Positions 1-60,373 of a stretch of 64,000 nucleotides of DNA are shown here, piece by piece. The first letter of the stretch is position 1; every line of letters starts with the position of its first letter. The stretch covers positions 1 through 64,000 of the forward strand of contig CBFFWQ010000011.1 in NCBI GenBank assembly GCA_965645705.1. Reading direction: 5' to 3'. The DNA comes from an uncultured Lachnospiraceae bacterium. Lineage in GTDB: Bacteria > Bacillota > Clostridia > Lachnospirales > Lachnospiraceae. The translations under genes and the position numbers were made by a program. The notes under the pieces are model-generated. The model did not search any database and had not been told where the DNA came from. It saw only the letters and a program-made list of their open reading frames with translations.

Positions 1-608
1 CTTTTCAAAAATTTGTAGTTCGGATTGTAGTGGCTGGTTTGATTCTTGTGGTATTGGTTAAACTTTTATTAGATTGCTATAAATAGGACTGACCGATAAA
101 GCAAGGTTTTTCAAATTTTCTATTTGTTTAGAGCGTTATAAAAATAACACAAATCAATGGATAAAATGATGCCTATGTTAAGTAGATTCCTACCAAACCT
201 ACTCTAAAAGCTGGTTTCAGTTGAGCTAATGCATAAGGGATTGTTCTTCACTTTTAAAATTACTAAAGATAATGAAATTGTATTAATGGTCATAATAAAA
301 ATAATTATTGTTCTTACTGAAACTTTTTACTCTGTTGTTATACTCACGAGTGGTAAATTTTACAGCTAACCTAAAAGTATACCAACTATAACAAATGTCT
401 TGCTGACGAATCTAAAGGCTCGTGAGTATAAATTCTTTCTAAATTAATAATATGAGTTCTGTTTAGCAGAAAGAAGTATACTACAAAACTAGTCACCAAA
501 TCGAAAATACCTCAAGAGCAGAACTAAAGGCTTATGGATACTTAGCATGGAAAAGGTTTTCTATCTTTTTCATCATAAATCCGCAGCAAGTAGATTAAGA
601 ACAACAAT

Positions 609-629
609 AAAAGGACGTTGCCTTTTCAG
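609..629 (-). terminator. Conserved hairpin+U-tract repeat (minus-sense GAAAAGGCAACGTCCTTTT), copy 1 of 5, about 100 nt downstream of the MVP stop
   Basis: Stem AAAAGGAC/GTCTTTT around a 3-nt loop followed by a T-run in gene sense. The same 20-28-mer recurs at 3442, 4858, 5998 and 10451. Confidence 0.45.
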
Positions 630-736
630 TACAACGCCCCAATAATTACACCAACAAGCTCTATAGCTACAATGACCATGCCACCTAATAAATCTAAAGG
701 CTCGTGAATCCAATACACCAGAATCTAAAGGAACTC

Positions 737-3259
737 TTAATCCTCGTCAACAGAAGGAGCAACAATAGAAGGGAGCTTTTCAACAAACTCCTCTAAAGAA
801 GTTCCATGAAGCAAACGGGTAGTTACATCAACAACAGACTCACCACTATCCGCAGCTAAAGCATAAGGACTCATCGCCTCCGCCAAAGTCTTCAATAACT
901 CGGCATTCGAAGTAGCAGTCATAGAGGCAATAAGGTCAGGACTAATCGCTTTCATTACATCCCGAATTGCTTCTGTTACAGATTCCCGTTTAGATACTTC
1001 AAGTTCTTCTAAAGCTTCTTTATATGCAATCTCTGCATCCTCGGACTTCTTCTTCCTCTTTAATTCTGCTTCTTGAATAGCATCCAGCACAGGCTGCAAA
1101 TTTTTCTCGGTTTCCTTTGCAGTCCTTATAGCAGTTTCTTCTAAACGCTTGATAACTTCTTCTTTTGCAATCTTTGCGGTAGCCAATGCTTTCTCCAACT
1201 CAAGTTCATGCTGTTTGTTATCATATTCAAGTTCAGCTTCACGTTCTTCTGCCTTAATCATCTGTTCCAGAATTTCGACTTCACGCTCTTTACTCGACCA
1301 TTCCAGCTGCCTACGAACCATAGTATACTGATGTCTATCAATCATATTCTGAATACTGTCTTCGACATGAATGCTCAATACATCAACATCGTGAACAAAC
1401 ATACCATTCTCACTAAAAAGCATTCCTGCTTTTCCACTCTCCATGTTTGTTACAATACCAGACTCTGGAATACCTAAAGCCACCCTTCTCACAATATCAG
1501 AAGCATTCTGATAAAAATCCTGAATTGTGTGTTTCTTTACTTCTCTCTTTAATAAAGAACGCTGCCTATCGCACAGATACTTCACATAGTTTTCTACATC
1601 AAACCATTTACTCTTAAACCTTTCTAGAAAATCAACACAGTAAGATACTTTCACATCTACATTAACAAAATCTTTCGTTTGCACATGAATGATATCAGCA
1701 ATCTTATTATTAGCCACACGCAAATAAACTGTCTTAAATAATTCATCTGTAGTTTTTGGTTTCCCTGTTGACAGTTCTAAAACTTCTAATGTCTGATCAT
1801 ATTCAAGCAGACAAGTCTGCGGACCACACACTACTTTTCTAGTACCATCCTTAGAAATTAGATTCACAGCATATCCCGTGAAAATTTCAATGGAAACAAC
1901 ACCAGCATACTTATTATCAATAAGAATTGTACGTGGTTCGCTGTAGGTATTCCCACGTGAAAATCCAGATTCTTCTACGACTGCATTTACCTGACCGTAG
2001 AAACCATTATCTAAAGGCTGAGCACTAAAATCATTAAACCTTTCAAAGGAACTCTGCTTAACTCTATTAGCACTTTTCATACTATTTCCAAGACTTCTAT
2101 TATACTCTAAAGCTTTTTCATTACCAGGAAACCATAATCTACACTGTTTATCTGTAAGCTTCCTTTTTACAACGACCTCATTCCTTGGGTCAGGCAAATA
2201 CATCGCTGGTCCTTTCACCATCTTTACATTGCCATTCATTCTATCAAGCACATAACGCCCTTCTCCAGCAGGAATAGCGATTGCATGATGCAATACCTTA
2301 TCTTCATACTTAATAATAGAATGTTCTGCCCTTGGATAATAAATCATCTGATCCTTACCTGTAATAAAAAGTTCTTCCCCAGTCTTGTAGCTCTTACCAG
2401 TATGCTCATCCACATAATCAGCAATAACCTTTAAATAAATCCCACTAATCTCAGACAATTCGATTGCCTTAAACTTATAGCCGCCAGTAGCTGTATTTTT
2501 TACGAAAATCTCATCAGGCTCTGGAAATACAACCGCTGAACCATGAATATACTTCTTTTCACCTTGCTCATTTTTTAGAATACAGTACTCTAACCTTTCC
2601 AGAGTAACAGCGTCCCTTACATACTTGTCACCTTTCCCACCAATAGGAAGAACTTCAATGCCTGTCGGCGGGATATAAAAAGGAACTTCTGTGCCTTTAA
2701 TTACAAGAATCTGTCCTACAGTATAACTAGCAGGAACTACCTCCGTAACAGAAGAATCTAAAGGAATGTCATCCTCACTACTCTCGTCTGCAACACCCTG
2801 AGTTTTCGGCAAGCCGACATCTGCTAAAGCATCTGCATCATAAACACGAGCCAATAAATACTGATTGGAATGCAACCTGTGACCTTGAATTACCTTAGCC
2901 ATCTGCCCTGGATACAATGCAAAAGAAATATTTCCCTTGATATTTACTTTCTTTCCAACCTGTAATTTCGGTGTTGTGTTTGGAGAATTCGGTGCTGGAT
3001 AGGAGCCATCTACAGTAGGATTCTTTAATGCAACATACCAATTCTCTGGTACTGCAACAAAAGTTGTAATAGCCGTGTCGAAGTTTGCTTCCTCAAACTT
3101 CTTTGTTTCTTCATTAAATACAACTAAAGCATCGGAATTGGACAGGCTCATTTTGCTGGAACCTACGACGCAGGAAATTAAACCTTTTGTCTTATCCAGC
3201 ACATAAGCGTACTCATTAGGATTTAATACCAAATCCCTTTCCCTTTGTAAATCTGACAT
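737..3259 (-). CDS. Major vault protein (MVP) homolog, about 840 aa: N-terminal vault repeats, SPFH-like shoulder, long cap-helix coiled coil and cap-ring
   Basis: Translation aligns by eye along its whole length with eukaryotic MVP. FALYPGQ matches FPLYPGE, TGEELFITG matches TGEEWLVT, VVCGPQTCLLEYDQTLEVLELSTGKPK matches [27 protein letters not shown], and a roughly 150-aa E/A/K-rich coiled coil is followed by AISPDLIASM...LLKTLAEAM, matching AIGPSTIRDL...LLQSLGL. Start trimmed to ATG at 3259 (MSDLQ), preceded by AAAGGTGG 9 nt upstream. Confidence 0.8.
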   Translation of the reverse strand: MSDLQRERDLVLNPNEYAYVLDKTKGLISCVVGSSKMSLSNSDALVVFNEETKKFEEANFDTAITTFVAVPENWYVALKNPTVDGSYPAPNSPNTTPKLQVGKKVNIKGNISFALYPGQMAKVIQGHRLHSNQYLLARVYDADALADVGLPKTQGVADESSEDDIPLDSSVTEVVPASYTVGQILVIKGTEVPFYIPPTGIEVLPIGGKGDKYVRDAVTLERLEYCILKNEQGEKKYIHGSAVVFPEPDEIFVKNTATGGYKFKAIELSEISGIYLKVIADYVDEHTGKSYKTGEELFITGKDQMIYYPRAEHSIIKYEDKVLHHAIAIPAGEGRYVLDRMNGNVKMVKGPAMYLPDPRNEVVVKRKLTDKQCRLWFPGNEKALEYNRSLGNSMKSANRVKQSSFERFNDFSAQPLDNGFYGQVNAVVEESGFSRGNTYSEPRTILIDNKYAGVVSIEIFTGYAVNLISKDGTRKVVCGPQTCLLEYDQTLEVLELSTGKPKTTDELFKTVYLRVANNKIADIIHVQTKDFVNVDVKVSYCVDFLERFKSKWFDVENYVKYLCDRQRSLLKREVKKHTIQDFYQNASDIVRRVALGIPESGIVTNMESGKAGMLFSENGMFVHDVDVLSIHVEDSIQNMIDRHQYTMVRRQLEWSSKEREVEILEQMIKAEEREAELEYDNKQHELELEKALATAKIAKEEVIKRLEETAIRTAKETEKNLQPVLDAIQEAELKRKKKSEDAEIAYKEALEELEVSKRESVTEAIRDVMKAISPDLIASMTATSNAELLKTLAEAMSPYALAADSGESVVDVTTRLLHGTSLEEFVEKLPSIVAPSVDED

Positions 3260-3441
3260 AATAGTAACCACCTTTCTTAATGTTAATAGAATTAGAATTG
3301 TACGGAAAACACAAGAATACCGAACAAATCTAATCAAGTGAGTTTAAGTAAAGATAAGGGAACAATTAATCTTTACCAACTGTTGCGGAGTAACAATACT
3401 GCTCTAAAGGCTACCACTCACAGGCATTTATAGGCAACAGA

Positions 3442-3460
3442 AAAAGGACGCTGTCTTTTC
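3442..3460 (-). terminator. Conserved hairpin+U-tract repeat, copy 2 (AAAAGGACGCTGTCTTTTC), flanked by two TCTAAAG motif copies upstream of the MVP gene
   Basis: Same hairpin as 609-629. Gene-sense reading is GAAAAGACAGCGTCCTTTTT. Confidence 0.45.
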
Positions 3461-3573
3461 AGAACAATATCCTTGTTGATCTAAAGAATTATTAAAGTGA
3501 ATTAGAATACAAGAATCAATTATTACACAAACGATAGATAGTTCCAAAAGTCTTTCGTTATCACATACTATAT

Positions 3574-3936
3574 TTATTCCAATAAATCTTTATTTTTCAT
3601 AAACAATAATCGCAAAAGTTCCGTTTTACCAGTAGCAGAATCACCAATAATCCTTGTAATTTTTTTAATGCTTAAGTTAGAACTATCAATATTCTTCATA
3701 ATCAACTCCTCCATACCACATGCAGACCCCCACAGTTTTATCGCAGGTAATTCATATAATATAATTAAAGTTTTTACGCTACCACTTAATCGGTCTGAGG
3801 ATATAATTCCTAATACGGGGCTTTGAAACGCACCATTTCCAAGCACTTCCGTTTTATCAATTTCTTGTATCATTTGACACACAAACGGATCTTCAAACCA
3901 TTCGTGCCTGAGAACGGACATAAAATAAATCATCAA
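3574..3936 (-). CDS. Hypothetical protein with a Walker-A-like GDSATGKT near its C-terminus (possible truncated ATPase remnant)
   Basis: ORF only. The P-loop sits about 20 aa before the stop, which is atypical. Confidence 0.3.
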   Translation of the reverse strand: MMIYFMSVLRHEWFEDPFVCQMIQEIDKTEVLGNGAFQSPVLGIISSDRLSGSVKTLIILYELPAIKLWGSACGMEELIMKNIDSSNLSIKKITRIIGDSATGKTELLRLLFMKNKDLLE

Positions 3937-4290
3937 TATTTATATCTCGATTATTTACACTACCAACCTCTAATTTTAACATAAACCAACACCACTCCTA
4001 CAAAATAATTTTTATACATTAAGTATACTACTTCTAGCAATAAATTAATATTTAATGAAAAGAATGCTACCTTTTTAAGATAGTGTTCTTAATGTTCTAA
4101 AGGATTCAATAGAAATTGATTATGCTCACTAACTGTGAAATTTACCACTAATTAAAAAAACATATACCAACTACAACAAGTGATTTTCTGGCAAATCTAA
4201 AGGCTAATGGGTATAACGTGAGAAACAAAAATTTCCTGCTTCTTAAGAAAAGACTACAATATTATGTTACGTTGGAATTAATACCTTTCT

Positions 4291-4710
4291 TTAATTTTCT
4301 TTATAAATTATTTTTCTCATACCACTGCCACAGAAATCATGTGGTATCTTTTTGAAACCAAAAGTTTCGTAAAAAGATTCTTTTCCTTTTTCTGAAATAA
4401 GCTGGATACTTGACCTACCTCCGTCAGGCGTATGTTCTTCTACATAATCCAATAACATACTAATGATAGAAGTACCAATCTTTTGATTTTGAAAATCAGG
4501 GTGTACAATTACATCTACAATCATATAGTATTGTCCATCACCAAGCAGTCTACCCATAGCAATTGTTTTCTTATTTTCAACAACTGTGATTACATATAAA
4601 CTATTACTGATGGCAGTTTCTGCTTGTATTTTAGAAAAATTTTTCCAATTAACACTTTCTCTTAATCTATAATAATCTCCGTAAGATAAAATATTTTCTT
4701 TATACTCCAT
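4291..4710 (-). CDS. GNAT-family N-acetyltransferase
   Basis: VHPDFQNQKIGTSII matches the acetyl-CoA-binding motif A. Size 139 aa. AGAGGA SD 8 nt upstream of the ATG. Confidence 0.7.
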   Translation of the reverse strand: MEYKENILSYGDYYRLRESVNWKNFSKIQAETAISNSLYVITVVENKKTIAMGRLLGDGQYYMIVDVIVHPDFQNQKIGTSIISMLLDYVEEHTPDGGRSSIQLISEKGKESFYETFGFKKIPHDFCGSGMRKIIYKEN

Positions 4711-4857
4711 AAGAATTATCCTCTTATAAAATTAACAATAGTGTCTATGATTTTACTTTACTATGCCATATTGAAACACACTTATGTATGAAAAATAAAA
4801 TCCTTTTACATTTTAAGCTTAACCATAAATTAGCTTTACAAGAAATTTAATAACAAC

Positions 4858-4878
4858 AAAAGGATATTGTCTTTTCAG
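4858..4878 (-). terminator. Conserved hairpin+U-tract repeat, copy 3 (AAAAGGATATTGTCTTTTCAG)
   Basis: Sequence family match to 609 and 3442. Sits downstream of the Fic locus. Confidence 0.4.
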
Positions 4879-5050
4879 AATGACACCCTTAATGAACTAA
4901 ACTACTTGATCGATAAAATGACTAACTATTACACGAATGCATAGCTCTATATAAAGCTTCTAAACCAAAAAGCAAAAAAGGTGTGCAGTCTAAAATTTCA
5001 TTTTCAGAGTCAATGAAAGCTACATCATACCTTGCACGTTCTTTATCAAA

Positions 5051-5865
5051 TTAGGATGTGAAACTTACAGCTCTTATTTTATCCAAACCAGAATCAATTA
5101 AAAACTTATTCATAATCATTCTTCCAGTTCTACCATTACAATCAGAAAAAGGGTGTACATACTCAAAAGCAAAATGCAATAATAAAGCTTTCAACCATGC
5201 ATTCTCCGAAAAAATTGGCTTGTTGTAAAAATCAATAAAAGTTGTTATTGCAGCAGGAACCTGCTCAAATGGAATAGCCTCGTATTCACCAATATAAACA
5301 GGAGCTGTTCTCCATTTTTTACCCATAAGCCATCGCAAACACCATTTGCAAGAATTCGCCATAATTCTAAGAGAATTTCCTCATTAAATTTTCCAGTATA
5401 TAAGTTTAAATATTTGACAGCATCAAACCCATTTTTTATCATTGTTTCACTATATTCATTATTTTTATCAATAGGAGCACCATTTCTAAGTACGTGCGTC
5501 CTAGCTAAAGTAGTTTTTGCACCCTCTATTTTCATTGTATAAAAAATTTCTTCTTCTATCTTTACTGAATGCTCAACTACTTTAAGCTTATCATACTCTT
5601 TCTGTACTAACTCCTCTAAAGAAGCTATCTGACTATTATACAAAAATTTTAATGTTGTTACACCCAATTGCAATCTAGTATCAAAAAGATTTTTCTTTTG
5701 CTTTTCTAATTCCTCTTGTGTGCTTAATAAGCTTGTATAGGATACCCACGGAAAGTCTACTTCATCATCAAAATAAAGTCCTTTAGGATGTGTAAAAATA
5801 CTTATAGTTTTTGTTTCATCAATAGGAGGAGTTTTAAAAGCAAAAAATTTTTTAGCATCCAACAT
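5051..5865 (-). pseudogene. Fic (filamentation induced by cAMP) family protein, split by a frameshift into 5245..5865 (N-terminal part) and 5051..5362 (C-terminal part carrying the Fic motif)
   Basis: HPFSDCNGRTGR is the canonical Fic motif HPFx(D/E)GNGRxxR. The two ORFs overlap by 118 nt in different frames. Confidence 0.55.
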
Positions 5866-5997
5866 TATTAATAATTCCTTTCATTCTAATTTTTAAATCC
5901 AAAACCAATGATACTATTCTATCATAACTATAATGTATACACAAGATAGAAATACAAGGATTTCAATTAAAATCATTTTCTATTTTATTAATAAAAA

Positions 5998-6025
5998 CAA
6001 AAGGACGCTGTCTTTTCAGAACAAC
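5998..6025 (-). terminator. Conserved hairpin+U-tract repeat, copy 4 (AAAAGGACGCTGTCTTTTCAGAACAACG)
   Basis: Sequence family match. A GACCTAAAGG motif copy lies immediately adjacent. Confidence 0.45.
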
Positions 6026-6060
6026 GTACTTGATGACCTAAAGGAATCAAATTAAAAATA

Positions 6061-6500
6061 CTACTCAGAATCAGAATCTGAAGAATCCTGTTTTTCTTCA
6101 GCACCATTACGAACATAATCTGGAACATGATAAAACCTCTGCTGTCTAGGCTTCGGCGGATGCTTCTTATGATAAACCTTATGACACTTACGTACAATAA
6201 TAATCACTAAGCTAAAGAGGATTGCATACAGAAATAAATGAATAATAACCATTCAAGAAATTCTGCAAAATTCTGCACTGTCTCAACTAAAGTATTACGC
6301 AATCTCTTTAAGAAAGTATCATTTGTCTTCGGTTTATCTTTATAGTGAGAAACCTCATTAATACTTATATTCAAATAGGAATAAGCAACATCTGCTTCTA
6401 TCATCATACGTGATTTTAGTTGCTCAATCTGAACCTGAACTTCTGTTAAGTAACTTTCTATTTGTAGCATTTCCTGCGTATTAAAAGACTTTTCAAGCAT
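6061..6500 (-). CDS. Hypothetical protein(s): two overlapping ORFs (6207..6500 and 6061..6252, the latter with a TM helix). May be one frameshifted gene.
   Basis: ORFs only. Confidence 0.2.
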
Positions 6501-6836
6501 TTTAACATATGCTTTTCTTTTGCTTAAAGAATTTCCATACGAACACCAGCGTCTTTATACTCTTGACTTACATTCTCTACGATGGACTCTTTACTTCTTA
6601 TGTCACCTAAAGAATTAATGAGAGTGTCATACTTTGTACTCGGAACTCTTACAGTTGCTGTATAATGTTGTTGCTTTTGAGATTCATCCATCACATAATC
6701 ATAGTGTCCTGCACCATCGCTATAATACTCTTACTCAACAAAACCACCTAAATCTTGCAGCAGACTCTTGAAAGAAGTTGCAGAAGTGTCAATGGAAACT
6801 TCGCACCTATAAATCAACATCTCTTTATCAATAATG

Positions 6837-7067
6837 TTATTTTGAGCAGAGGGAGAAATCTATGGAGGAGGTGAAGGACTTGGGTGAATCGTGAGAGGAA
6901 ACAGAGGAATCATAGGCGGAAGAAGAAAAACCTAAAGAATCCTCGTTGCCTGAACTAAAACCTTTATAACTGTCAGTACTGCTACCATCGTAAAAATTAT
7001 CACCACCAGTACAGCCAACGATAACCATACAAGAAACAAATAATCCAATGAAAAAAATCTTTTTCAT
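6837..7067 (-). CDS. Putative lipoprotein (signal peptide with a VGC lipobox, S/D-rich). Short and possibly truncated; no ORF follows over about 300 nt.
   Basis: MKKIFFIGLFVSCMVIVGC N-terminus. Confidence 0.3.
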   Translation of the reverse strand: MKKIFFIGLFVSCMVIVGCTGGDNFYDGSSTDSYKGFSSGNEDSLGFSSSAYDSSVSSHDSPKSFTSSIDFSLCSK

Positions 7068-7150
7068 AACGTACCTACCTAACTAAGAAATTATCTTCTA
7101 AGTACAACCACATAAAATTAAATGGTATCTCATCAAAATTGTCTAAGGTG

Positions 7151-7618
7151 CTAATTTATCAAATCACGAAGCTCAGTATAATAAACAGAATTTAACCAAA
7201 ATACAAAAATAGGATAAGGAACTCTGTAAATACCTTGTTCATCATCTGTTAGCACTATTTTTGTTTTCTTTTTACCTATAAGAATCTTTGTAAAGTAATC
7301 GTATTCTTGGAAAACATGAAAATGCGTAGCTGAAATCGACTTATCTGAAATACTCATCTCATACATAATCTGTCGCTTAAAATCAATAAGATCTACTTCA
7401 GCATCACCCTGCTCAGGCTTATGCAATTCTGTAATACAGTAATGTGCTTGTGCATCACAATAAGCACCCTTCAAAAAAGTCTCAATAAAACTTCCTAACA
7501 AAGCACCTGTTAAAACATCAGACAGAACTAAAGAAATACCACCAACATTTTTCAGATCCATCAATAAATCTTTAAGCAATCCCACAAAGGGTAATGGTGA
7601 AATCACTAAAACATTCAC
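7151..7618 (-). CDS. Hypothetical protein, 4-nt overlap with the upstream ORF (same operon)
   Basis: ORF only. Confidence 0.3.
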   Translation of the reverse strand: MNVLVISPLPFVGLLKDLLMDLKNVGGISLVLSDVLTGALLGSFIETFLKGAYCDAQAHYCITELHKPEQGDAEVDLIDFKRQIMYEMSISDKSISATHFHVFQEYDYFTKILIGKKKTKIVLTDDEQGIYRVPYPIFVFWLNSVYYTELRDLIN

Positions 7619-8088
7619 AAGTTTAAAAAAAAACTTGTAATATTTACAATTCTTTTTCCAGCTAAATACTCATTCCCTGAAAACCAATCCAATAATTCAT
7701 CACTATTTAGCATATTATTTATAGACTGAAAGCACACTAATCTACAATTGTATAATAATTTTAGAGCTGCTTTTACATCAGTAAAATTATACTTCCCAAC
7801 ATTTCGAGCATAATGACTAATAAGGTTATGTTCCAAAACTAAATTAAATATTTCCTGTTGTTCTTTTGAAATAGTCTTTAATGTTTTATTTAGGATATTT
7901 TGAATACTTTTTAAAGTTCTTGCACCTGAACACATTGCATCCCAGCCTGAATTATTATGCAAATGATACAAACATAAACATAAAATACAAATTGTAAATT
8001 CCGTGTCACGTACATTAGATGCAGGATTTCTAGTCTCATAAACTCGATTAGTATTTGATACAACATTTTCTTCAATACAAGAAGCCAA
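7615..8088 (-). CDS. Hypothetical protein
   Basis: ORF only. Confidence 0.3.
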   Translation of the reverse strand: MASCIEENVVSNTNRVYETRNPASNVRDTEFTICILCLCLYHLHNNSGWDAMCSGARTLKSIQNILNKTLKTISKEQQEIFNLVLEHNLISHYARNVGKYNFTDVKAALKLLYNCRLVCFQSINNMLNSDELLDWFSGNEYLAGKRIVNITSFFLNL

Positions 8089-8121
8089 ATACTCTTTTAA
8101 AGAGCTAAAACCGGAAAACTT

Positions 8122-50551: not shown

Positions 50552-50631
50552 AACAAAAACTCCTTTCTATAAGAATCTAAAGAAATGGTATCAGGAAATG
50601 CCTCTATCCATTTTCACATTGATATCCTTAT

Positions 50632-51844: not shown

Positions 51845-52011
51845 CATAAAATTCCTTTCTACACTCAAACTATAGAAACTATAATAGAAGATTTTGCTGA
51901 CACTTGAAGATTGCAAATCTAAAGGATTGTATAGAAATAAAATTAGGAACTGTTACAGGACTCCGTCCTGCAGCAATCCCTACAAAAAATACTGTACGCT
52001 ATAAAAATGGA

Positions 52012-52335
52012 TTATTTTACTTTTGTATTAAAAGCTTTATTTAATTCACCATCAATAATGTCATAAAATTGGCACAAACTGTCTATACAAACCAATAAAC
52101 TACTACGCACAAATACCATCTGTTCTTTACTAAATTCTTCTATAAAATGCTCGGAAAGGTCATTCACTATTTCCGATACTTCTCTTATATGCAATACAAG
52201 ACTTTTCTCCGAATTCTGTAATTGTTGTGCTGGTACAACAGAACGTTTTGCACTTTGGAATGCTTTCTCAATCTTTTCTTCTGAAATACTATAATGTTGT
52301 CTTAAAATTTCAATACAAACTAAAGAATCGCACAA
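52012..52335 (-). CDS. MazG-like paralog (shorter)
   Basis: ILRQHYSISEEKIEKAFQSAKR matches MRQFYGIEEELNKAFQCAKR of 50632. Confidence 0.35.
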   Translation of the reverse strand: MCDSLVCIEILRQHYSISEEKIEKAFQSAKRSVVPAQQLQNSEKSLVLHIREVSEIVNDLSEHFIEEFSKEQMVFVRSSLLVCIDSLCQFYDIIDGELNKAFNTKVK

Positions 52336-52479
52336 TTCTTCTATGCACGCAACTAATTTTATTTCTGTATCAAACCGTGCATAAGATTGTTGTATCTTCT
52401 TTTGAACAAAGGATCTCTGATCTCACTTGCCTCTTGATACTGTTTTTTAAATAATTCTCTTTCCATAATCTAAAGTCTC

Positions 52480-53053
52480 CTATAACTCAATTTTTTCTAT
52501 ACTTTGCTTAAATACAAAGTTATTTTTCTCTAATTCCTTCAAAGTTACAGGTGCATAACCATTAATAACCACACCACAATTTAGAGCCTTATCTAAAGTC
52601 CTCATAAACTGAAATGTAACATTTGTGCTATTATGAATATGTCCATACACATGATAAGTTCCATGATACATCCATTCCACTCAGCTAAAGGATAATGACA
52701 AACGCAAATATTTCTACCGTCATCTCTTACATGACACATCTTGTCCACGCCTTCAAAACAACTCATAGCAGCAGCATCTTCTAAAAGCTTACCATCGTGA
52801 TTACCGATAATAAGATACTTTTACCTTTTAACTGTTTTAAGTACCATTCAAAAGGTTTCGTGTTTCTGTAAACAAAATCGCCTACTACATACACCGAATC
52901 CTTATTATTTACTTTCTTATCCCATAATTCAATAAGTATACGATCCATCTCTTCTACGGAACTAGAGGGTCTATTATCAAACTTAATTACACTCTGATGA
53001 CCAAAATGAAGATCTGCAACATAATAAATCATATCCATGAATCTACCTTTCAC
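52480..53053 (-). pseudogene. Metallophosphoesterase paralog decayed into two ORFs (52781..53053 with DLHFGH and 52480..52680 with GHIHN)
   Basis: N- and C-terminal MPE motifs lie in different frames. Confidence 0.45.
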
Positions 53054-53369
53054 AAAAGCTGTACTGCTTCATACAAGACTGTATGCTTACTGTCCAAATT
53101 TTCATTAAAATGATAATGCCCAAAATACCAATGATTATACTGCAATCTCTGCTCTAGCCATGAAAATAATTCGTCAATCTATCTGGAACATTATGGTAAG
53201 AAATACTTCCACGACTATACAGTATTCCCACAATCAAGTTTTGTGCTTCACTGGAAGCACAATGCGTAATTACATAATCTACACAATAATCAACTTTCTC
53301 CAGATTCTTCCTACCTTCCTGCATTTTCCTCCTCTGTCGGTAATTCCTCTTTCCACCAAGAGAAATGCT

Positions 53370-53822
53370 TCACTCGATACGGTAGTCTTTCCTATTTGCT
53401 TTCTTAACAAGATCAAAGTAATTCGGATCATCTCTATCCAGAATACCACCTTGCACGTCACCACTTTTAGCACCGCCAAATGTAAAGAAAGTCTTTCCGT
53501 CAATCGAAAAAACTTGACCTCTTTCCAACAAAATAATATTAGGAAGAATTTTTCGCACCTTTTCACCATTCCATTCTTCTACTGGATACTCTGCAATTAA
53601 ATCATAATTCTCATGATTTCCTTGCACCCACAAAATAGTGAAAGGAAGTCTTGACATCCAATCCAAATTATATTCTAATTCTTTATCCTTTACCCAAAGT
53701 AAACTAAAGTCACCACAGACAATTATAAAATCTCCTTTGTCTGACTCTGCCTGTACTCTCCATCGGCTCTTCTTTGTAAAGCGACTAAAACTGCCATGTG
53801 TGTCACCTGTAACATAAATCAT
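53370..53822 (-). CDS. Metallophosphoesterase (paralog 3, 150 aa)
   Basis: YVTGDTHG, CGDF, GNHE. Confidence 0.5.
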   Translation of the reverse strand: MIYVTGDTHGSFSRFTKKSRWRVQAESDKGDFIIVCGDFSLLWVKDKELEYNLDWMSRLPFTILWVQGNHENYDLIAEYPVEEWNGEKVRKILPNIILLERGQVFSIDGKTFFTFGGAKSGDVQGGILDRDDPNYFDLVKKANRKDYRIE

Positions 53823-53915
53823 AAAACCGCCTTCCTTCCTTAAATTTATTCAGCAAAGAAACTGAATCTCAATACAAAACTCTACTGTCGTAGACGAATC
53901 TAAAGGCTTGTGAAC

Positions 53916-54467
53916 TCAAATTAAATTCATGCCGTTAAAAGCATTTAGCATTCCTGTCACAATAAAATCTGCTATCTGCATAACTAAACGCATCCGTACC
54001 GAGTGAATGAATTCCTCAAAAGCAATATCAGATTGAGTCACTATACCAGTGATGCTAATATTCCCCACTTTTGGTAAAGTTTTACCAAAAGCAATTCCTG
54101 GAGAAATTTCTCCTTCACGCAAAGTAACACTACCAATAGCATTGCATTCCCCCATAAAACTATCAATAACAATAATGAATGGATTACAATACTTGTTATT
54201 CATAGTATCAATCATTTCTTTAAGATTACCCGCATGAACGCTAGACTCTAATGTACCATACACAATTATACCATCATAATGGTTAGAAGCAAGCCTATGT
54301 CCAACTATCGAACCAAGACAATCCCCAATAAAATAATCTGAACCAATACATAGAACAATAATTCTCTGATAACCATTTAATTTGCTTCTTAGCATTGTTT
54401 GCAACTTGTACTCAAATTGCCGTCTGTTGTTTTTCTCTGCAGTATTAAAATTACAATAAATACTCAC
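53916..54467 (-). CDS. yyaC: YyaC-like putative sporulation/germination-protease-family protein
   Basis: IIVLCIGSDYFIGDCLGSIVGHRL resembles the YyaC/GPR-type signature. Confidence 0.45.
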   Translation of the reverse strand: MSIYCNFNTAEKNNRRQFEYKLQTMLRSKLNGYQRIIVLCIGSDYFIGDCLGSIVGHRLASNHYDGIIVYGTLESSVHAGNLKEMIDTMNNKYCNPFIIVIDSFMGECNAIGSVTLREGEISPGIAFGKTLPKVGNISITGIVTQSDIAFEEFIHSVRMRLVMQIADFIVTGMLNAFNGMNLI

Positions 54468-54563
54468 TGTTAAAACACCCTCCGTTACGCTAATAAATTT
54501 TAGGACTGTATCATCGGAGCTATTAAGAGTGCTTAAACTATAATGTAAGCACCTTATAAAACA

Positions 54564-54595
54564 AAATGGCAGACGCTGTTACACGCCTGCCATTA
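54564..54595 (-). terminator. Rho-independent terminator, 32-mer identical to 11357-11388
   Basis: Exact repeat of the hairpin plus U-tract, downstream of 54627..55412. Confidence 0.6.
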
Positions 54596-54626
54596 AACAA
54601 AATTTTCCTGACCTAAAGGTTTATGA

Positions 54627-55412
54627 TTACTTTATAGAAACTTCTTGCCAACCCTCTGGCTTGCTATAAACTATTCTACGCCGAGAATTTTTCGCATGAG
54701 CTTCAATAAAATCTACGCTCTCAGGACTGTACTCATCTACGCAATCATCCCTAATTACTAATAAACGGTCGTTCGCTCCAATAAAGAAATTTCCCTTTGA
54801 TAAATCAAGCTGAATAATACTATCAAACTTACGACCACTTAATGCAGAAGAATCCGCACCTAAAGGTTTTAAAAATACCTTAAAACTACGTGGACCAAAT
54901 ACTCCTGGAGTTCTATCTTTCAAATCAAAATAATCAAACTCTGCTACCAGCCTACAAAGCCTAAACAACAACTTACCAATACGATCCGACACAATAGACA
55001 AGAGAAGCTTTGATACAAAAACTAACAAAAAATAATAACCAGCAGTCAACCCTGCATGAACTAAAGCTACATCAACTGCAACGAAAACAGCAACAACCAG
55101 AAACGCTGGCAATTCAACCCGACACCACGATTGTTGTCTATCAACATTCACAATGATAGACAGTCGCACACTGAACACCAATGCTACAACTCCCACAATC
55201 AGAATAAAAGCCTGCTTTAAATCAATGGACAAATGCTTACCCATCGCAGTAAATACAATATTCAACAAAAATAAAATCCCATCCAATAGCCAAGTTGTCT
55301 TGTATAATACTTCTTGCTGCATTAAATGCAACAGCTCTTTTGTTCGAAACTTAATCTTTCTAATCGTTCTATAAGGTTTAATGCTGTACTTCTTTCCTAA
55401 TACTTGTTTCAT
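54627..55412 (-). CDS. Membrane protein (N-terminal TM helices and a C-terminal soluble domain, possibly bacterial PH-like)
   Basis: Hydrophobicity pattern only. Confidence 0.35.
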   Translation of the reverse strand: MKQVLGKKYSIKPYRTIRKIKFRTKELLHLMQQEVLYKTTWLLDGILFLLNIVFTAMGKHLSIDLKQAFILIVGVVALVFSVRLSIIVNVDRQQSWCRVELPAFLVVAVFVAVDVALVHAGLTAGYYFLLVFVSKLLLSIVSDRIGKLLFRLCRLVAEFDYFDLKDRTPGVFGPRSFKVFLKPLGADSSALSGRKFDSIIQLDLSKGNFFIGANDRLLVIRDDCVDEYSPESVDFIEAHAKNSRRRIVYSKPEGWQEVSIK

Positions 55413-56799
55413 TTGACCTTTCCCACCTTTCCAAAGTGTCTATTTCATTTTTAATACCAGAACGGAAATCCACAATCGTATCTGGTGCAATTGGAATACA
55501 ATGCAATTTAGAAGAATCGTCAAACATCCTATAATAAGATTTTATTCCATACGGGATTACAACACTGCCATAACCATCGCCACGATACTTCAAATAAGCT
55601 TCACCATCCCAATACCTAAAGGTGAATTGCCGATAATCGAAAACAAACTCTCCCAGAAATCCTTTGTAGTAAATCTCCCAACCACCAACCCACTTTACAC
55701 GAAAATTAGTGTACTCTACGGATTGACAACCTTGATAAACGCAATTGCCCCTTTCACCATAAAAATTTTCTTTTAAACAAAAACAATTGCTGAATGCACA
55801 ATCACAAGAATCCACTGCCCAATGCACGAACGGTTGCGACTGCAAAAAGAAACAATTCTCGAATGCATAATCCATACGGCGAACACTTTCTGGCAATTCA
55901 GGAGGTTCTAAAACCCAATAGCAATCCTGAAAAACACGACTGGCATCAACCAATCCTTCTGGCAATACAATTCCTCTTGAAGCCCCTCCACAGTAATGCA
56001 AATAAGAAAATTCCTCACAATACTCTATACAATACTCTCTCGTGTCATACTCAAACGAACCTAAAGAACCATCATACGAAATCACAAAAGAATTTTTTTC
56101 TACTTCATTTAATACCGATGCCTTGAGCGAACCGTAAACTCTTTCCAAAGTAGTACACCCTTCATAAATAGAATCTTCGTACTCCTCTGGTTTTCCATCT
56201 AAAGGAAGAACTGCAGGTAATTCTAAAGCAACGCAACCTTTAAAAATACCGTCAAAATACAAAATAGTACCTGCAATAAGAGGCGGTTTCTTTAGCGATA
56301 CACAACCATCTAACGCATGATTCAGACACACAACACTAGAAGGAAATTTAGGAGGCTCTTTCAATTCACGACAATCTCGAAATGCACTACTGCAATCAGT
56401 AACTCCATAGGGAATTTGTGGTGGATACACTATACCACAACCACAAAACAATCTATAAGCAGATTTCAATCCAACCGGTATTTTAATACAAGAGCCATCT
56501 GTCTCAGAGCCAATATAATGCAAATAAATTCTTCGCTGACCTAAAACTACTTCAAATTGAGTAGGATCATACTTAAACGTACCTAAAGTATCAGAACTAC
56601 AAATTGCACTCAGCAAATGTATCACCCTTTCTAACGCACTACAGAGCAATACTCTATAGGCTATACTGCAACAAAACAGTACAATCATTGCATAAGCAAT
56701 AAAATGTCTGGAATCTCTCGACTCCAGACACAAATAAAAAAGGTAATACAAAACACAAATCACCGAAGAGACAAACCTAAAGCTATAATAAAGAAACAA
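55378..56799 (-). CDS. BspA-type leucine-rich-repeat protein (about 470 aa) with N-terminal hydrophobic segment
   Basis: Multiple IPxGV...FxxCxxL repeats. Confidence 0.5.
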   Translation of the reverse strand: MFLYYSFRFVSSVICVLYYLFYLCLESRDSRHFIAYAMIVLFCCSIAYRVLLCSALERVIHLLSAICSSDTLGTFKYDPTQFEVVLGQRRIYLHYIGSETDGSCIKIPVGLKSAYRLFCGCGIVYPPQIPYGVTDCSSAFRDCRELKEPPKFPSSVVCLNHALDGCVSLKKPPLIAGTILYFDGIFKGCVALELPAVLPLDGKPEEYEDSIYEGCTTLERVYGSLKASVLNEVEKNSFVISYDGSLGSFEYDTREYCIEYCEEFSYLHYCGGASRGIVLPEGLVDASRVFQDCYWVLEPPELPESVRRMDYAFENCFFLQSQPFVHWAVDSCDCAFSNCFCLKENFYGERGNCVYQGCQSVEYTNFRVKWVGGWEIYYKGFLGEFVFDYRQFTFRYWDGEAYLKYRGDGYGSVVIPYGIKSYYRMFDDSSKLHCIPIAPDTIVDFRSGIKNEIDTLERWERSNETSIRKEVQH

Positions 56800-56817
56800 A
56801 GCTAATCAACTAAAAAC

Positions 56818-57177
56818 TCAGTGCAATAAAGGTTCTACCTTGCTTACTAGAAACTTCCTTGTTTCTTCTATAATAATACTATTATTTTTTTCCAACACCT
56901 TGAAGGCATCTGTACCGTTACACACACCATTCTCCTGTAAAATACTCACAGCCGCAGACAAACACGCACTAGCATAAGGATTGATAATACGGTCAAAAAT
57001 TGACCGTTCACCCTCAATTTGTCCATAATAAAATCCATCTTTGTAACCATCTGAATAAGCATCTGAAAACTGCTCATCACACTGACAGTCTAAAGCACCT
57101 ACAGACAAAAAATTCCTCTCTTCTTCCTTGAAACTCTTTACTGCTACAATTTTAGAATTTTTCTTTTTACCCTTCAT
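56818..57177 (-). CDS. Hypothetical protein
   Basis: ORF only. Confidence 0.3.
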   Translation of the reverse strand: MKGKKKNSKIVAVKSFKEEERNFLSVGALDCQCDEQFSDAYSDGYKDGFYYGQIEGERSIFDRIINPYASACLSAAVSILQENGVCNGTDAFKVLEKNNSIIIEETRKFLVSKVEPLLH

Positions 57178-57503
57178 TACACTAAATCCTCCTAATAATT
57201 TTATAGTTTTTGCTATAGTAATACAAGTTTACTACCGACAACTCATAAAATTAGGAGCGAATTTTATCTGTTTTCATTAAAATTATAAATTTATGCTAAC
57301 GAAATGCTATTGTATTCACTAACACGTTAAAATACAACAGCATTTCCCAACAAAAGAAATGTTTCAGAAATCGAAAAGAAATCTAAAAAGCTTTACTAAG
57401 CTAAAGGTTTTATGACTACTATGCCATAAAACCTGCAAACTACAAAAAATAGTACACGGTAATTTAATCATGTATTGAAAATACAATAATGAACTGCATT
57501 ACA

Positions 57504-58304
57504 CTATCTACGACGATTTCTTCCCCTTAATACAATAAGACTCACCAACGAACGAGGTAATGGTTCAATACTATAACTCGTGTAAGCTTTACCAAACTCT
57601 TCCTGTGCTTTTGTTAATACTTTCTCAGCTGCCCCCATACTCTCATACACACGAGCGCCACGAATAACATCCGTCACACCTAAAGTACCTTTACTATCTT
57701 CTGCGACAAACATTGGAGTCCTTGTGAAACTATTCTTTGCAGTAACTATAAAAACAAAATCCTTAATTGGTAAATTGTTCTCTTGCTTAGAAGTTTCACT
57801 TTCAGAACCTGTAGATTCTATAAGTGATTTCTCTGGTTCAATACTAATCACCTTATGCACATACTCCAAAGGACGCAGTTTACTTAAACGTTCGATCTGT
57901 GCATCTGTAAAAGAAAGTTCTTTCGTACTCAATTGACCATGAGTACGTAATACTCTACCTTTCACTTTCCCCTCTGCACGTCTTCCTACTGCAATAAACG
58001 TAACAATACTTGATTCAGCACTTTCTCTTTCTGTAGTTACAGAACCAATCAGCTGTCCCTCAAAGTCTTTCTGAAAAAAATACTCTGGAAAATCAATAGA
58101 CAAAACTTTTGCATCAGTTGGGACAAAGAACGTCTTTTTTCCGAAACCGTCAATCTCAAATCTAAGATTCATTCCAATATGTTTGCAATCAGGGCACACT
58201 GCCTCCTGATGAGCAACACCTAAACACTTCTCTAAATCTTTAAATCCATAGCCTAATGTAATAATCTTCGAACACTCAGAGCATTCATGCTTAATTTCAA
58301 TCAT
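57504..58304 (-). CDS. Hypothetical protein with N-terminal Zn-ribbon (CxxC...CxxC)
   Basis: ORF only. Confidence 0.3.
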   Translation of the reverse strand: MIEIKHECSECSKIITLGYGFKDLEKCLGVAHQEAVCPDCKHIGMNLRFEIDGFGKKTFFVPTDAKVLSIDFPEYFFQKDFEGQLIGSVTTERESAESSIVTFIAVGRRAEGKVKGRVLRTHGQLSTKELSFTDAQIERLSKLRPLEYVHKVISIEPEKSLIESTGSESETSKQENNLPIKDFVFIVTAKNSFTRTPMFVAEDSKGTLGVTDVIRGARVYESMGAAEKVLTKAQEEFGKAYTSYSIEPLPRSLVSLIVLRGRNRRR

Positions 58305-58407
58305 CTTTTATCTCCTCCATACTTTTATTTCACGGACTTATCGCCGTAAACTCACTGCACTACCTAAAATGACAGTGAGATAATCCAAATCTATAAAAAA
58401 CAATCTT

Positions 58408-59862
58408 TCACACCAATACAATCTCTATTGAAATACTCTTAAGCAGGAAAGACTGAATTCCTCTCTGCAACAAACTCTTATTTGTTTGATTACACAAAAA
58501 TCTATAATCCTCACGAGAGTGACAGCATACAAGCAATACACAATCTTTATCCACAAACACAGAAGTTCTGCCAAGCACAGAATCTAAAGGAGATGGTAAG
58601 ACAATCTCCTTCACACACTCAATCACTGTCAAAGCATCCAAATAACAAGCTCTACTCTCAAACTCGACGGAACACTCTGGAACACTAAACTCCGTGACAC
58701 TCTTCTGCAACTTCTCTACCTGCTTTTCTAATTCCTGAATACGAATTAGCAAAGATTCTGAATCGGATTCAGAATCAAACCGAACTTCACACAACTTAAT
58801 AAAATAAATCTCTGCAATACTTGTCTTCTGCGTATTAGAACGAAATTTTTCCTGCAGCTCAGACAGAACTCGTATCACACGAATAAGAAATTTAGAATCA
58901 ACCATACCGAGAGCAGACTCTACCATTCCTTGTTCTGTTTCACCAAAATCTGTCATATCCCATACACTACGAGAAGAAGACAATAATAGTAAATCTCTAT
59001 TGAATTTTATAAATCCAGAAACAACTGATTCAATACTATTGCCAGCAGATAAAGTGTCCTGCAGTAACAGCAGAATTGGTTCAACACTACCATCCCGAAT
59101 ACACTTTAATAAACTAAAATATGTTTCAGTCGGCGGCACTCCTAATACAGAACGTACACCTGCATAATCTAAAGAGGAGACTGAAGCAATGCACCTATCA
59201 AGCAGACTAATCGCATCACGCAGAGAACCATCAGAAGCAGAAGCTATAAAACGAAGTGCGGCAGAATCTGTCACAGCACCCTCTGCCTCCGCAATAACAA
59301 CTAATCGTTCCACAATGGAATCTAACGGAATCCTCTTGAAGTCGTATCTTTGACATCTCGATGCCACTGTTGGTATCACCTTATGCACATCCGTAGTTGC
59401 AAGAATAAAAATCACATACGGCGGAGGCTCTTCCAGTGATTTAAGCAAAGCATTGAATGCACCCGTAGACAGCATATGTACTTCGTCTACAATCATTACC
59501 TTATACTTACAATCAGTAGGCGGATACCGTAACTCTTCAATCATAGTACGAACAGAATCAACACCATTATTAGAAGCGGCATCAATTTCTTGTACACTAA
59601 AAGTAGTACCTGCAGAAATAGATTCACAAACTCTGCATTCACCGCAAGGATTACCATCAACTGGAGATAAGCAATTAACAGCTTTTGCCATGATTTTGGC
59701 AATCGTTGTTTTACCTGTCCCCCTAGTTCCAGTAAATAAATAGGCGTGACTAATGCGACCATTTTTAACCTGATTGCGTAAAGTTGTCACAATCGCATCT
59801 TGCCCCTTTACACTATTGAAGTCTTGGGGACGGTATTTCCGATACATAACTTGATAAGCCAC
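58408..59862 (-). CDS. dnaX: DNA polymerase III gamma/tau subunit (clamp loader)
   Basis: AYQVMYRKYRPQDF matches E. coli SYQVLARKWRPQTF. GTRGTGKTT, CxxCxxC zinc module, DEVHMLS, SRCQRYDF. GTG start at 59862 with GGAGGT SD 9 nt upstream. Confidence 0.85.
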   Translation of the reverse strand: MAYQVMYRKYRPQDFNSVKGQDAIVTTLRNQVKNGRISHAYLFTGTRGTGKTTIAKIMAKAVNCLSPVDGNPCGECRVCESISAGTTFSVQEIDAASNNGVDSVRTMIEELRYPPTDCKYKVMIVDEVHMLSTGAFNALLKSLEEPPPYVIFILATTDVHKVIPTVASRCQRYDFKRIPLDSIVERLVVIAEAEGAVTDSAALRFIASASDGSLRDAISLLDRCIASVSSLDYAGVRSVLGVPPTETYFSLLKCIRDGSVEPILLLLQDTLSAGNSIESVVSGFIKFNRDLLLLSSSRSVWDMTDFGETEQGMVESALGMVDSKFLIRVIRVLSELQEKFRSNTQKTSIAEIYFIKLCEVRFDSESDSESLLIRIQELEKQVEKLQKSVTEFSVPECSVEFESRACYLDALTVIECVKEIVLPSPLDSVLGRTSVFVDKDCVLLVCCHSREDYRFLCNQTNKSLLQRGIQSFLLKSISIEIVLV

Positions 59863-60373
59863 TAGGTCAACACCTCCTGATACTATAAAAATTGCAACAC
59901 CCAATGAAATAATAAATTCAACCACGTTAAAAAGAGTAGTTCATTGACTACTCTTTCGCATACGCACAAACAAGAATGCTAAATTAAAAGAAGTCATGCT
60001 TTTTCAGTATGCTCCCCTATAAAACTTGAATACTAACCGTTTTAACAAAATAGCTTGTTTTAATAATTTTCACTAACAATGAAACTCTCTTCTGCAATGT
60101 CAGAATTATTTTTAGAATGAATAATGATTATATCAATTTACTTAGATACATCTTTATCTATATTCATGAACTGTGAAATTTAACATGACCTAAAGGATCG
60201 ATAACTACAACAATTATCCTACTTGGCAAAACTAAAAATTCATAAATATAACAGTAATATTAGAAACAATCATTACAATCCATCATACATTTTCTAATTA
60301 GGAAAACCTATGAAATAAAACACTTATTGCAAGTTACTGGACAGTCAAAAATTCTTGCATACAGATAAATATA

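Follow-up and report, generated by a model that had tools for sequence, protein, structure and literature searches.

What is the short, oriented sequence that recurs between the genes of this uncultured Lachnospiraceae contig, and what keeps it on one strand? The window, that is, the whole stretch of 64,000 nucleotides analysed here, had been described in the original prediction as carrying more than 40 copies of a core that can be written RAYCTAAAGR. This motif is real, as the pattern matches 49 sites, on the plus strand only, compared with an expectation of 1.7 and a maximum of 4 in 100 shuffles, and a copy was found within a few bases of each position put forward. The core had been drawn too narrowly, however, and the true unit is shorter and far more abundant. 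Read on the gene-sense (minus) strand, the core is 5'-CTTTAG-3' and the extended unit is CTTTAGNT. CTTTAG occurs 158 times in gene sense and 8 times on the other strand (z = 10.9 in a 4th-order model; 25–35 copies expected under orders 1–3), and the 8-mer CTTTAGNT occurs 136 times in gene sense and twice in reverse. The one-mismatch neighbours of CTTTAGNT have ordinary counts. The copies have a mean spacing of 405 nt with a Poisson-like distribution (CV 1.0), and no regular spacing or phasing was found.

The reverse orientation is mildly depleted, with 8 copies compared with ~ 16 (15–20 expected, p ~ 0.02) and, within coding sequence (CDS), 7 copies compared with 15.9 ± 3.7. A reversed copy that had been linked to a plus-strand cassette does exist, at 19164–19169 rather than 19185, yet it is one of eight reverse copies whose number is at or below background, which removes the link to the cassette. 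Nearly all genes and all motif copies are co-directional over at least 80 kb, and there is no polarity switch over that distance (~ 100 kb were inspected, the replicon measuring at least 275 kb). An AT-rich k-mer artefact would be equally frequent in coding sequence and randomly oriented. The motif is indeed frequent in coding sequence but its orientation is far from random, and such an artefact can thus be dismissed.

The copies had been thought to lie exclusively between genes and in almost every spacer. In fact, 19 of the 49 10-mer matches (18 of them in one frame) and 98 of the 158 core copies (62%) are inside ORFs, and only 34 of the 62 spacers of at least 40 nt hold a copy. The 158 copies divide into 60 in spacers, 85 in the frame xCT-TTA-Gxx, 10 in the frame xxC-TTT-AGx and 3 antisense to a plus-strand gene; the frame that contains a stop codon is never used. 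The density is 2.0/kb in CDS versus 3.6–3.9/kb in spacers. Synonymous shuffling leaves 23.0 ± 4.4 CDS copies where 89 are observed. Moreover, the tripeptides [SPTA]-L-[DGVA] are spelled xCT-TTA-GNT at 66 of 103 sites (64%; 9.1 expected, p ~ 1e-43), and the second permissible frame is also enriched (9 of 65 versus about 4%). With two frames enriched, the stop frame avoided and the permissive tripeptides saturated, selection acts on the nucleotides and not on codon pairs. A codon-pair or translational cause was rejected on the higher density in spacers than in CDS, the enrichment of two frames and the presence of antisense copies. Stop-codon reassignment was considered because the motif contains TAG; recoding any stop barely alters ORF coverage and the code is standard. 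Pairing of the motif with the 3' tail of 16S rRNA was discarded as well, with at most 4 contiguous pairs seen by inspection.

A subset of the copies belongs to a longer, mostly intergenic form (Table 1). The sequence GAGCCTTTAGATTTGCC has 12 matches at up to 3 mismatches compared with 0.18 expected, and the 17-mer AATCTAAAGGCTCGTGA has 10 compared with 0.13. Two of the three longer copies named in the original prediction, 10535–10551 and 49763–49779, are recovered, whereas the core of the third, near 60212, is degenerate (CTAAAA). About 5 of the ~ 12 long-form copies sit in imperfect hairpins of ~ 95 nt, which are REP-like or ssi-like. The 338–431 hairpin has a 13-bp outer stem in which UUAUACUCACGAG is paired with CUCGUGAGUAUAA; the CCUU of the motif is in an internal loop and UAGAUU is paired with AAUUUA. 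In the 4120–4216 hairpin, the pairing of the outer stem CAUUAG/UUAGUG is kept through G-U pairs and in the sense strand only. The loop of the 60150–60250 element contains an intact copy, CCTTTAGGT, at 60190–60195. Compensatory changes, each in at least 1 of 7 sequences, affect 5 of the 8 outer-stem pairs. These elements resemble REP/BIME sequences, ssi/sso hairpins and T7 RNase III sites in being imperfect spacer palindromes that all point one way and keep a conserved motif unpaired. They differ in that there is no sequence similarity, no Rfam match and no RAYT-type transposase; the only match of the Rfam covariance models in the window was a tRNA-Asn, with none at the motif. A REP-like character, as suggested earlier, may apply to the long form only; palindromes and similarity beyond the core extend to ~ 5–12 copies and not to the other ~ 146.

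Table 1 Features of the polar motif in the window.
Feature	Position	Strand	Remarks
Polar-motif domain, 5'-CTTTAG(N)T-3'	263..63932	-	Core in 158 copies; T at +2 in 136 of them
Sole intergenic reverse copy	19164..19169	+	Other 7 reverse copies in minus-strand ORFs
Motif-free gap	28896..30865	.	Coincides with ISAzo13-family transposase gene (29112-30332), recent insertion
Motif-free 1.46-kb insertion	46800..48262	.	28-nt inverted repeats 46790-46817 and 48243-48270
DUF6465 gene	48348..48812	+	Three minus-strand motif copies, antisense to the gene
Antisense copies in DUF6465	48370-48375, 48445-48450, 48532-48537	-	All with T at +2
Best GAGCCTTTAGATTTGCC copy, gene sense	10535..10551	-	Alignment
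Further long-form copies	405-421, 687-703, 4190-4206, 15105-15121, 15849-15865		At most 3 mismatches; 15849-15865 within an ORF
Further long-form copies	30953-30969, 37166-37182, 42861-42877, 49763-49779, 51912-51928, 53893-53909		At most 3 mismatches
Long-element hairpin	338..431	-	~ 95 nt, -26.3 kcal/mol, z = -3.45
Hairpin form	4120..4216	-	Right arm GGTAAATTTCACAGTT matches exactly
Hairpin form	10468..10562	-	AGAUUUGCC paired with GGUAAAUUU; followed by terminator-like hairpin
Hairpin form	49697..49792	-	Second motif copy in distal part; -29.9 kcal/mol, z = -3.28
Hairpin form	60150..60250	-	Left-arm core decayed to TTTTAG

The copies are conserved. Alignment with a relative of 84% nucleotide identity shows 26 common copies and 7 and 9 unique ones, a retention of 74–79% compared with 44% for all hexamers (p = 3e-4), and the turnover is by single substitutions. 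The polarity is the same in every relative sampled (53:2, 60:2, 57:4 and 45:1 in L111, L121, L081 and L115, respectively), and is 13:1 in the distant relative L123. The motif is absent from recent insertions, namely the insertion sequence and the 1.46-kb insertion bounded by terminal inverted repeats (Table 1). The latter is missing from a contig, L114, that is elsewhere 99–100% identical.

The motif is also lineage-specific. Eighty Lachnospiraceae dnaX loci (1.2 Mb) contain 131 versus 172 copies on the two strands, or 0.11–0.14/kb, with no enrichment or skew, and the 5.6 kb past the left border contain 4 and 3 copies without motif signal. Neither phage phiCD211 nor the conjugative-element (ICE) loci L119 and L120 are enriched; L119, which has a similar GC content, carries 0.5–0.7/kb on both strands. 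A further candidate carrier, L097, looked skewed, but the word is not over-represented there. No close relatives were found in phage and plasmid collections or in IMG/VR, where a 16-mer scan returned chance matches only, and two JGI metagenome scans with DUF6465 and helicase queries yielded no confirmed relatives. A literature search on CTTTAG/CTAAAG and on polar phage motifs found nothing relevant.

These results bear on whether the motif could be a functionless by-product, either of the spread of a REP/MITE-like repeat or of the codon or compositional bias of an AT-rich genome with one coding strand. A repeat family does exist, and with genes all on one strand any word borne by codons becomes strand-biased. 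However, no more than ~ 12 of the 158 copies can be ascribed to the family, synonymous shuffling retains 23 where 89 are observed, L119 shows no such bias at similar GC content, the copies are conserved above background and the one-mismatch neighbours are not enriched. This explanation is largely refuted, and we consider it scarcely credible.

The key test of the relation between motif and transcription was the single good plus-strand gene, DUF6465. Its [ST]-K-E sites are spelled A-xCT-AAA-G in 3 of 3 cases, a spelling that minus-strand genes use at 5 of 69 sites (p = 4e-4). Across the gene the local GC and AT skew is reversed, but the motif strand is not. In the homologue of the distant relative L123, 65% identical, the count is once more 3 of 3, after the loss of one site and the gain of another, and the motif is not enriched in the gene's own sense. 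In this test, which comprises one gene family (DUF6465) and one 77-aa ORF, motif polarity follows the DNA strand and not transcription.

This result weighs on a transcription-tied signal, which we regard as possible but rather improbable. The motif would then be an ops- or pause-like site on the non-template strand that re-loads an antitermination factor, or a site of RNA binding or processing, and would serve very long co-directional transcripts that cross many intrinsic terminators. Such a role fits the shared direction of genes and motif over at least 80 kb, the enrichment of terminator-like hairpins on the gene strand (24 versus 7.7 expected in 20 kb) with no consistent promoter motif evident, the twofold density in spacers, and the long-form G-U pairs and compensatory changes, the former folding in the sense strand only. 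Nonetheless, antisense copies are kept in DUF6465 in two lineages with none enriched in its own sense, the placement of the copies is unrelated to starts, stops or terminators, and a 64% saturation of permissive ORF sites is hard to justify for an RNA site. Antisense read-through across DUF6465 could rescue the model. The original suggestions of a UTR motif, an alternative sigma-factor site or a processing site do not account for the ORF saturation, the second enriched frame and the DUF6465 antisense copies.

The next start codon lies between 2 and 692 nt from the motif. Intrinsic terminator hairpins do not include the motif, which is found on either side of them, and no second conserved element or partner motif is present from -60 to +70 nt. 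The prediction that the motif is neither a sigma-70 promoter at fixed distance nor a terminator is thus upheld, and neither sigma-70-type nor alternative-sigma promoters fit, as there is no second hexamer at fixed spacing and the distance to starts is unconstrained. Regulator operators of the mycobacteriophage-stoperator type, or promoters of an element-specific sigma factor, are very unlikely. The site is asymmetric, unidirectional and enriched in spacers, an extended consensus of ~ 16 nt is seen in about 12 spacers, and the motif resembles the late -35 box of phage SPO1, CGTTAGA. However, 98 of 158 copies are in ORFs, there is no -10/-35 partner or fixed start distance, DUF6465 carries antisense copies, and the copy number exceeds that of known operator sets about ten-fold. 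Stoperators and start-associated sequences are likewise asymmetric, in one orientation relative to genes and in the short spacers of a mobile element, but they are 13-bp sites in 20–35 copies that are essentially intergenic, whereas here an 8-mer is found mostly in ORFs. Taken as a whole, the polar word shows the behaviour of a directional DNA signal of the Chi or KOPS kind, not that of a promoter, terminator or UTR site.

The motif is carried by a large replicon with many orphan genes in co-directional arrangement, which looks like a mobile element of gut Clostridia. The only phage hallmark seen was a homologue of phrog_1491 of doubtful annotation. A neighbouring gene encodes a 1609-aa methylase-SNF2 helicase with homologues in conjugative elements. 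This helicase was rejected as a partner of the motif because its homologues occur in ICEs without any polar word, and the protein family is therefore no predictor of the motif. The surroundings of dnaX were excluded as the source of a primase or reader, as the neighbours are orphans or an LRR protein and not replisome parts. No reader protein was identified, and inspection of ~ 100 kb revealed no primase gene.

Firmicute DnaG primases start at 5'-CTA/TTA-3'. The complement of CTTTAGNT is ANCTAAAG, which contains CTA. An unlikely alternative is that CTTTAGNT or ANCTAAAG is the preferred start site of a primase of the element or its host, with the motif strand single-stranded during lagging-strand synthesis or after conjugative entry and the hairpins acting as strong ssi- or sso-like sites. 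The strict one-strand polarity independent of transcription, the hairpins, whose loops expose the motif and whose folding is better in one strand than in the other, the conjugative-element homologues of the adjoining helicase, and the embedding of both CTA and TTA in the motif or its complement are all consistent with priming. Yet known primase sites are 3–5 nt long and such enrichment is not known for them, no primase gene accompanies the motif in the inspected region, depletion of the reverse orientation is not predicted, and the ICE loci with homologous helicases lack such a motif.

With moderate confidence, we interpret the intergenic motif as the visible part of a replicon-wide, strand-polar octamer, CTTTAGNT, that is a DNA-level polar signal of the Chi/KOPS class. 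Like Chi (RecBCD/AddAB), it is a short exact word, over-represented and strand-polar, that occurs in both coding and non-coding sequence, characterises the resident backbone and is not found in recent insertions; a parallel extends to the enrichment and orientation bias of Chi in the plasmid-prophage P1. Chi is recognised as single-stranded DNA, as is proposed for the motif here. However, the present word is AT-rich, ~ 10 times denser and 95–98% polar compared with about 75% for Chi in E. coli; neither related host-type genomes nor the flank carry it, no cognate helicase-nuclease was identified, and the intergenic copies have an extended consensus and hairpins. The over-representation and skew that Chi shows in its host chromosome were not found in these related genomes, which give an indirect comparison. 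With the KOPS/SRS sequences that orient FtsK and SpoIIIE it shares an 8-mer with one degenerate position, a very high skew, a mildly counter-selected reverse orientation and independence from transcription. The latter sequences are G-rich, with about one copy in 10 kb, and change strands at the origin and dif, whereas here the polarity is constant over at least 80 kb and there is no known translocase. The DNA uptake sequences USS/DUS are similar in their extreme over-representation (about 1/kb), use of permissive frames, extended spacer consensus and association with hairpins or terminators, and 'drive' of their kind could explain the saturation; but they are not strand-polar, and nothing here corresponds to their tie to competence.

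The sequence is unlike the known Chi and KOPS/SRS motifs, which are G-rich. Other observations also run against the Chi/KOPS class: known Chi or KOPS do not come near this density (1 per 0.4 kb) and saturation, and the extended intergenic consensus and hairpins look more like a protein- or RNA-binding site than like a classical Chi or KOPS.

Under the Chi/KOPS-class reading, selection would act on the DNA itself to keep CTTTAGNT on one strand of the conserved replicon backbone. Its most likely role would be to signal polarity or 'self' to an enzyme that tracks DNA one way. In the preferred version, the single-stranded motif would be read by a helicase-nuclease or a translocase that enters or moves from one side, to which it would signal 'right direction, do not degrade'; in the next-best version, it would be a priming site on the strand exposed in unidirectional replication or transfer. 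The long intergenic hairpins may be high-affinity versions that present CCUUU/CCTTT in an internal loop. The absence of the motif from related host-type genomes and the flank makes AddAB/RecBCD or FtsK/SpoIIIE of the host unlikely readers, so that a reader encoded by the element must be postulated. A more tentative reading, less likely than not, is that of a giant element of gut Clostridia with a private polar self-marking code, in which the octamer would be placed on one strand wherever coding allows and would mark the element against host or foreign DNA. The element's own DNA-tracking enzyme might then read it in a Chi- or KOPS-like manner and be nuclease-attenuating, translocase-guiding or priming.

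Chi and KOPS-type polar words are the main known means of reading direction or 'self' on bacterial chromosomes. The AT-rich word described here has much higher density and polarity and is private to one lineage of very large elements made up mostly of orphan genes, being shared neither by related bacteria nor by other elements of similar base composition. If something reads it, the two would form an undescribed enzyme-motif pair, which could be used for spotting these elements in metagenomes and for dating foreign insertions, and which would bear on the ways in which giant phage-, plasmid- or ICE-like replicons withstand host nucleases or arrange their replication and transfer. The hundreds of sites can be removed or inverted by synonymous recoding, which offers an experimental handle.

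An unbiased k-mer scan of the window identified the hexamer CTTTAG, in gene sense (minus strand), as the real unit of the repeat. It is the sole outlier word (z = 10.9; the runner-up hexamer has z = 3.5), with 158 copies on the minus strand versus 8 on the other strand and 25–35 expected by Markov models of orders 1–3. Position +2 is T in 86% of the copies, and the 8-mer CTTTAGNT occurs 136 times versus twice on the opposite strand. Neighbors one mismatch away have ordinary counts and the reverse orientation is depleted about two-fold. The original prediction described (A/G)A(T/C)CTAAAG(G/A) as an oriented repeat with more than 40 copies, all of them in spacers. Such a repeat does exist, with 49 matches, all on the plus strand, versus 1.7 expected; the 17-mer form yields 10 matches versus 0.13 expected. 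The confinement to spacers did not hold: 19 of the 49 matches lie within ORFs, 18 of them sharing one frame.

The CTTTAG copies are distributed among spacers (60), the ORF frames xCT-TTA-Gxx (85) and xxC-TTT-AGx (10), and a plus-strand gene (3), with none in the ORF frame reading CTT-TAG; the genetic code is standard. ORFs with a minimum length of 80 aa have a density of 2.0/kb, compared with 3.6/kb outside them, and copies occur in only 34 of the 62 spacers. Synonymous shuffling of the ORFs resulted in 23.0 ± 4.4 copies, compared with 89 observed. The spelling xCT-TTA-GNT is used in 66 of 103 [SPTA]-L-[DGVA] tripeptides (9.1 expected), a class that is itself enriched 1.55-fold, and the enrichment extends to the second permissible frame (9 of 65 versus about 4%). 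Thus, the selective pressure is on the nucleotides, wherever coding tolerates the motif. That the motif is a by-product is hardly credible.

From −60 to +70 nt around the motif, C at −1 and T at +2 and +3 are the only informative positions, and the distance to the next start codon ranges from 2 to 692 nt, which together rule out a classical promoter. The spacing between copies is Poisson-like (mean 405 nt, CV 1.0). An assignment as operator or sigma sites is considered very improbable. Terminator-like hairpins on the gene strand are abundant (24 versus 7.7 expected in 20 kb); they exclude the motif, which is found on either side of them, and a terminator is therefore ruled out. A known RNA family is likewise ruled out, as an Rfam search of the window returned tRNA-Asn alone.

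All three motif copies in the plus-strand gene encoding DUF6465 are antisense to it, being on the minus strand. The spelling A-xCT-AAA-G is used at 3 of 3 [ST]-K-E sites in this gene versus 5 of 69 in minus-strand genes (p = 4e-4), and the one A-L-D site of the gene does not have the spelling of a sense copy. The local GC and AT skews reverse at this gene and the motif polarity is unchanged. In L123, a distant relative, the 65% identical DUF6465 protein again has 3 of 3 such sites, following the loss of one ancestral site and the gain of a new one, and a second plus-strand ORF also contains one antisense copy. The motif polarity therefore tracks the DNA strand. This finding counts against a signal that resides in the non-template strand or the RNA of long transcripts, for which antisense read-through transcription across DUF6465 provides a formal escape; such a transcript signal is possible and rather unlikely.

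Every sampled piece of the element family carries the motif with the same type of polarity: 53 versus 2 copies in L111 (a relative at 84% nucleotide identity), 57 versus 4 and 45 versus 1 in the related loci L081 and L115, 13 versus 1 in L123, and 60 versus 2 in the related locus L121, bringing the co-directional domain to 80 kb or more. Eighty control Lachnospiraceae dnaX loci (1.2 Mb) contain 0.11 and 0.14 copies/kb and are unskewed, a control ICE locus of the same GC content as the window contains 13 and 18 copies per 26 kb, and no outlier word was found in phiCD211. Between the window and L111, 26 copies are common and 7 and 9 are lineage-specific, gains and losses being single substitutions; the retention of 74–79% exceeds the 44% of all hexamers (p = 3e-4). 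Large motif-free gaps match recent insertions, namely the ISAzo13 region and a 1.46-kb segment, and strain-variable cargo has reduced motif density.

The statistical behavior of the motif fits the class of architecture-imparting polar words that includes Chi and KOPS/SRS. Its saturation resembles that of DNA uptake sequences (USS), an analogy that suggests very strong selection or transmission drive. A DNA-level polar signal, preferably for guidance or protection of the Chi/KOPS type, is given an even chance; a priming signal is improbable. A host-encoded reader of the polar signal is unlikely, given that the motif is lacking in related genomes and in the left flank of the element. The reader must be assumed to be element-encoded; no candidate was found in the ~ 100 kb of element sequence inspected.

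The GC content of the window is 33% and its skew is strong; about 76% of it is coding, with nearly all genes on the minus strand. Most of its proteins have no match in Pfam or PHROG. The recognizable genes are a mixed set, auxiliary and anti-defence-like: DnaX, NAPRTase and isochorismatase, ADP-ribosylglycohydrolase, PRTase_2/TRSP, StiP/PELOTA, zeta toxin, guanylate kinase, RibD_C, radical SAM/SPASM, SPFH and MVP-shoulder proteins, metallophosphoesterases and an ISAzo13 transposase. DnaX shares just 44–53% identity with Lachnospiraceae DnaX. Metagenome contigs of up to 275–285 kb carry the same element. Homologues of a methylase/helicase fusion are located in conjugative elements, and those of a PHROG 1491 protein in large Clostridial and Brevibacillus phages and phage-plasmids. 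At the left border, a frameshifted IS630-like transposase is followed by an XRE/CI-type regulator, a 548-aa ECF-sigma-like protein and a methyl-accepting chemotaxis protein; beyond it, the motif is at background and GC skew tracks gene orientation. A 275-kb NCBI contig terminates exactly at this border, which could be an integration junction. Together, the gene set, contigs, homologues and border led to the element being called a large mobile-element-like replicon or island, which may be a phage, plasmid or ICE.

Features of the window and its flanks
Feature	Location	Strand	Remarks
Left border	L116 (locus) 7236-12932		Beyond window position 1
Hairpin family, terminator-like	11359-11388, 15295-15322, 54560-54600		Common loop and stem core GCGTGTAACAGCG; 3 copies versus 0 expected
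Second hairpin family, terminator-like	3450-3465, 6007-6022		Common GTTCTGAAAAGACAGC
tRNA-Asn and PHROG 1491 protein	15601-16399		Adjoining; 216 aa, 'tail fiber' annotation doubtful; phiCD211 homologue likewise adjoins a tRNA gene
Gene-poor stretch	16.4-20.6 kb		Holds the sigma-70 consensus
Sigma-70 consensus TTGACA-18-TATAAT	19631-19660	+	Perfect, 12/12; 12 nt upstream of the 73-aa ORF
73-aa ORF	19672-19893	+
NAD/ADP-ribose cluster	36014-44622		NAPRTase, isochorismatase/nicotinamidase, ADP-ribosylglycohydrolase, PRTase_2/TRSP, StiP/PELOTA; endonuclease V, HipA-like and macro-domain genes replace or join these in L114 (related locus), PARG-like gene added in L121; looks like a variable anti-defence island
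1.46-kb segment	46790-48270		28-nt flanking inverted repeats (93% complementary); missing from L114, otherwise 99-100% identical; no convincing ORF, zero motif copies; probably a non-autonomous transposable insertion
DUF6465	48348-48812	+	Only well-supported plus-strand gene in the window
dnaX	58408-59925		Region taken downstream to 54627; neighbors are orphans or an LRR protein (436 aa, weakly similar to BspA-type leucine-rich repeats); ybaB and recR absent; DUF1256 downstream, as in bacterial dnaX regions L112 and L113
Longest motif-free stretch	60856-63666	−	2.8 kb, three minus-strand orphan genes; differs between window and L111 lineages, which suggests recently exchanged cargo
Methylase/helicase fusion	L081 1661-6490; window 63436 onward		Just past right end; 1609 aa, Eco57I/N12-type adenine methylase and SNF2 helicase; DarB-like, ICE-type; about 3 motif copies per kb

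A long form of the motif, GAGCCTTTAGATTTGCC, has 12 matching copies versus 0.18 expected. Four to six of these belong to a ~ 95-nt imperfect palindrome, in which they are the left arm and GGTAAATTTCACAGTTCGTGAG is the right arm. The predicted fold positions CCUU inside an internal loop and pairs (U)AGAUUUGCC with GGUAAAUUU; two of six folds have z of about −3.3 to −3.5. This subset, which is what drew the attention of the original prediction, is REP-like, ssi-like or RNase-III-site-like. Alignment of seven copies, a small number, revealed compensatory changes at 5 of 8 outer-stem pairs, each in one or more sequences, and the U-G and G-U pairs of this stem can form in the sense strand only.
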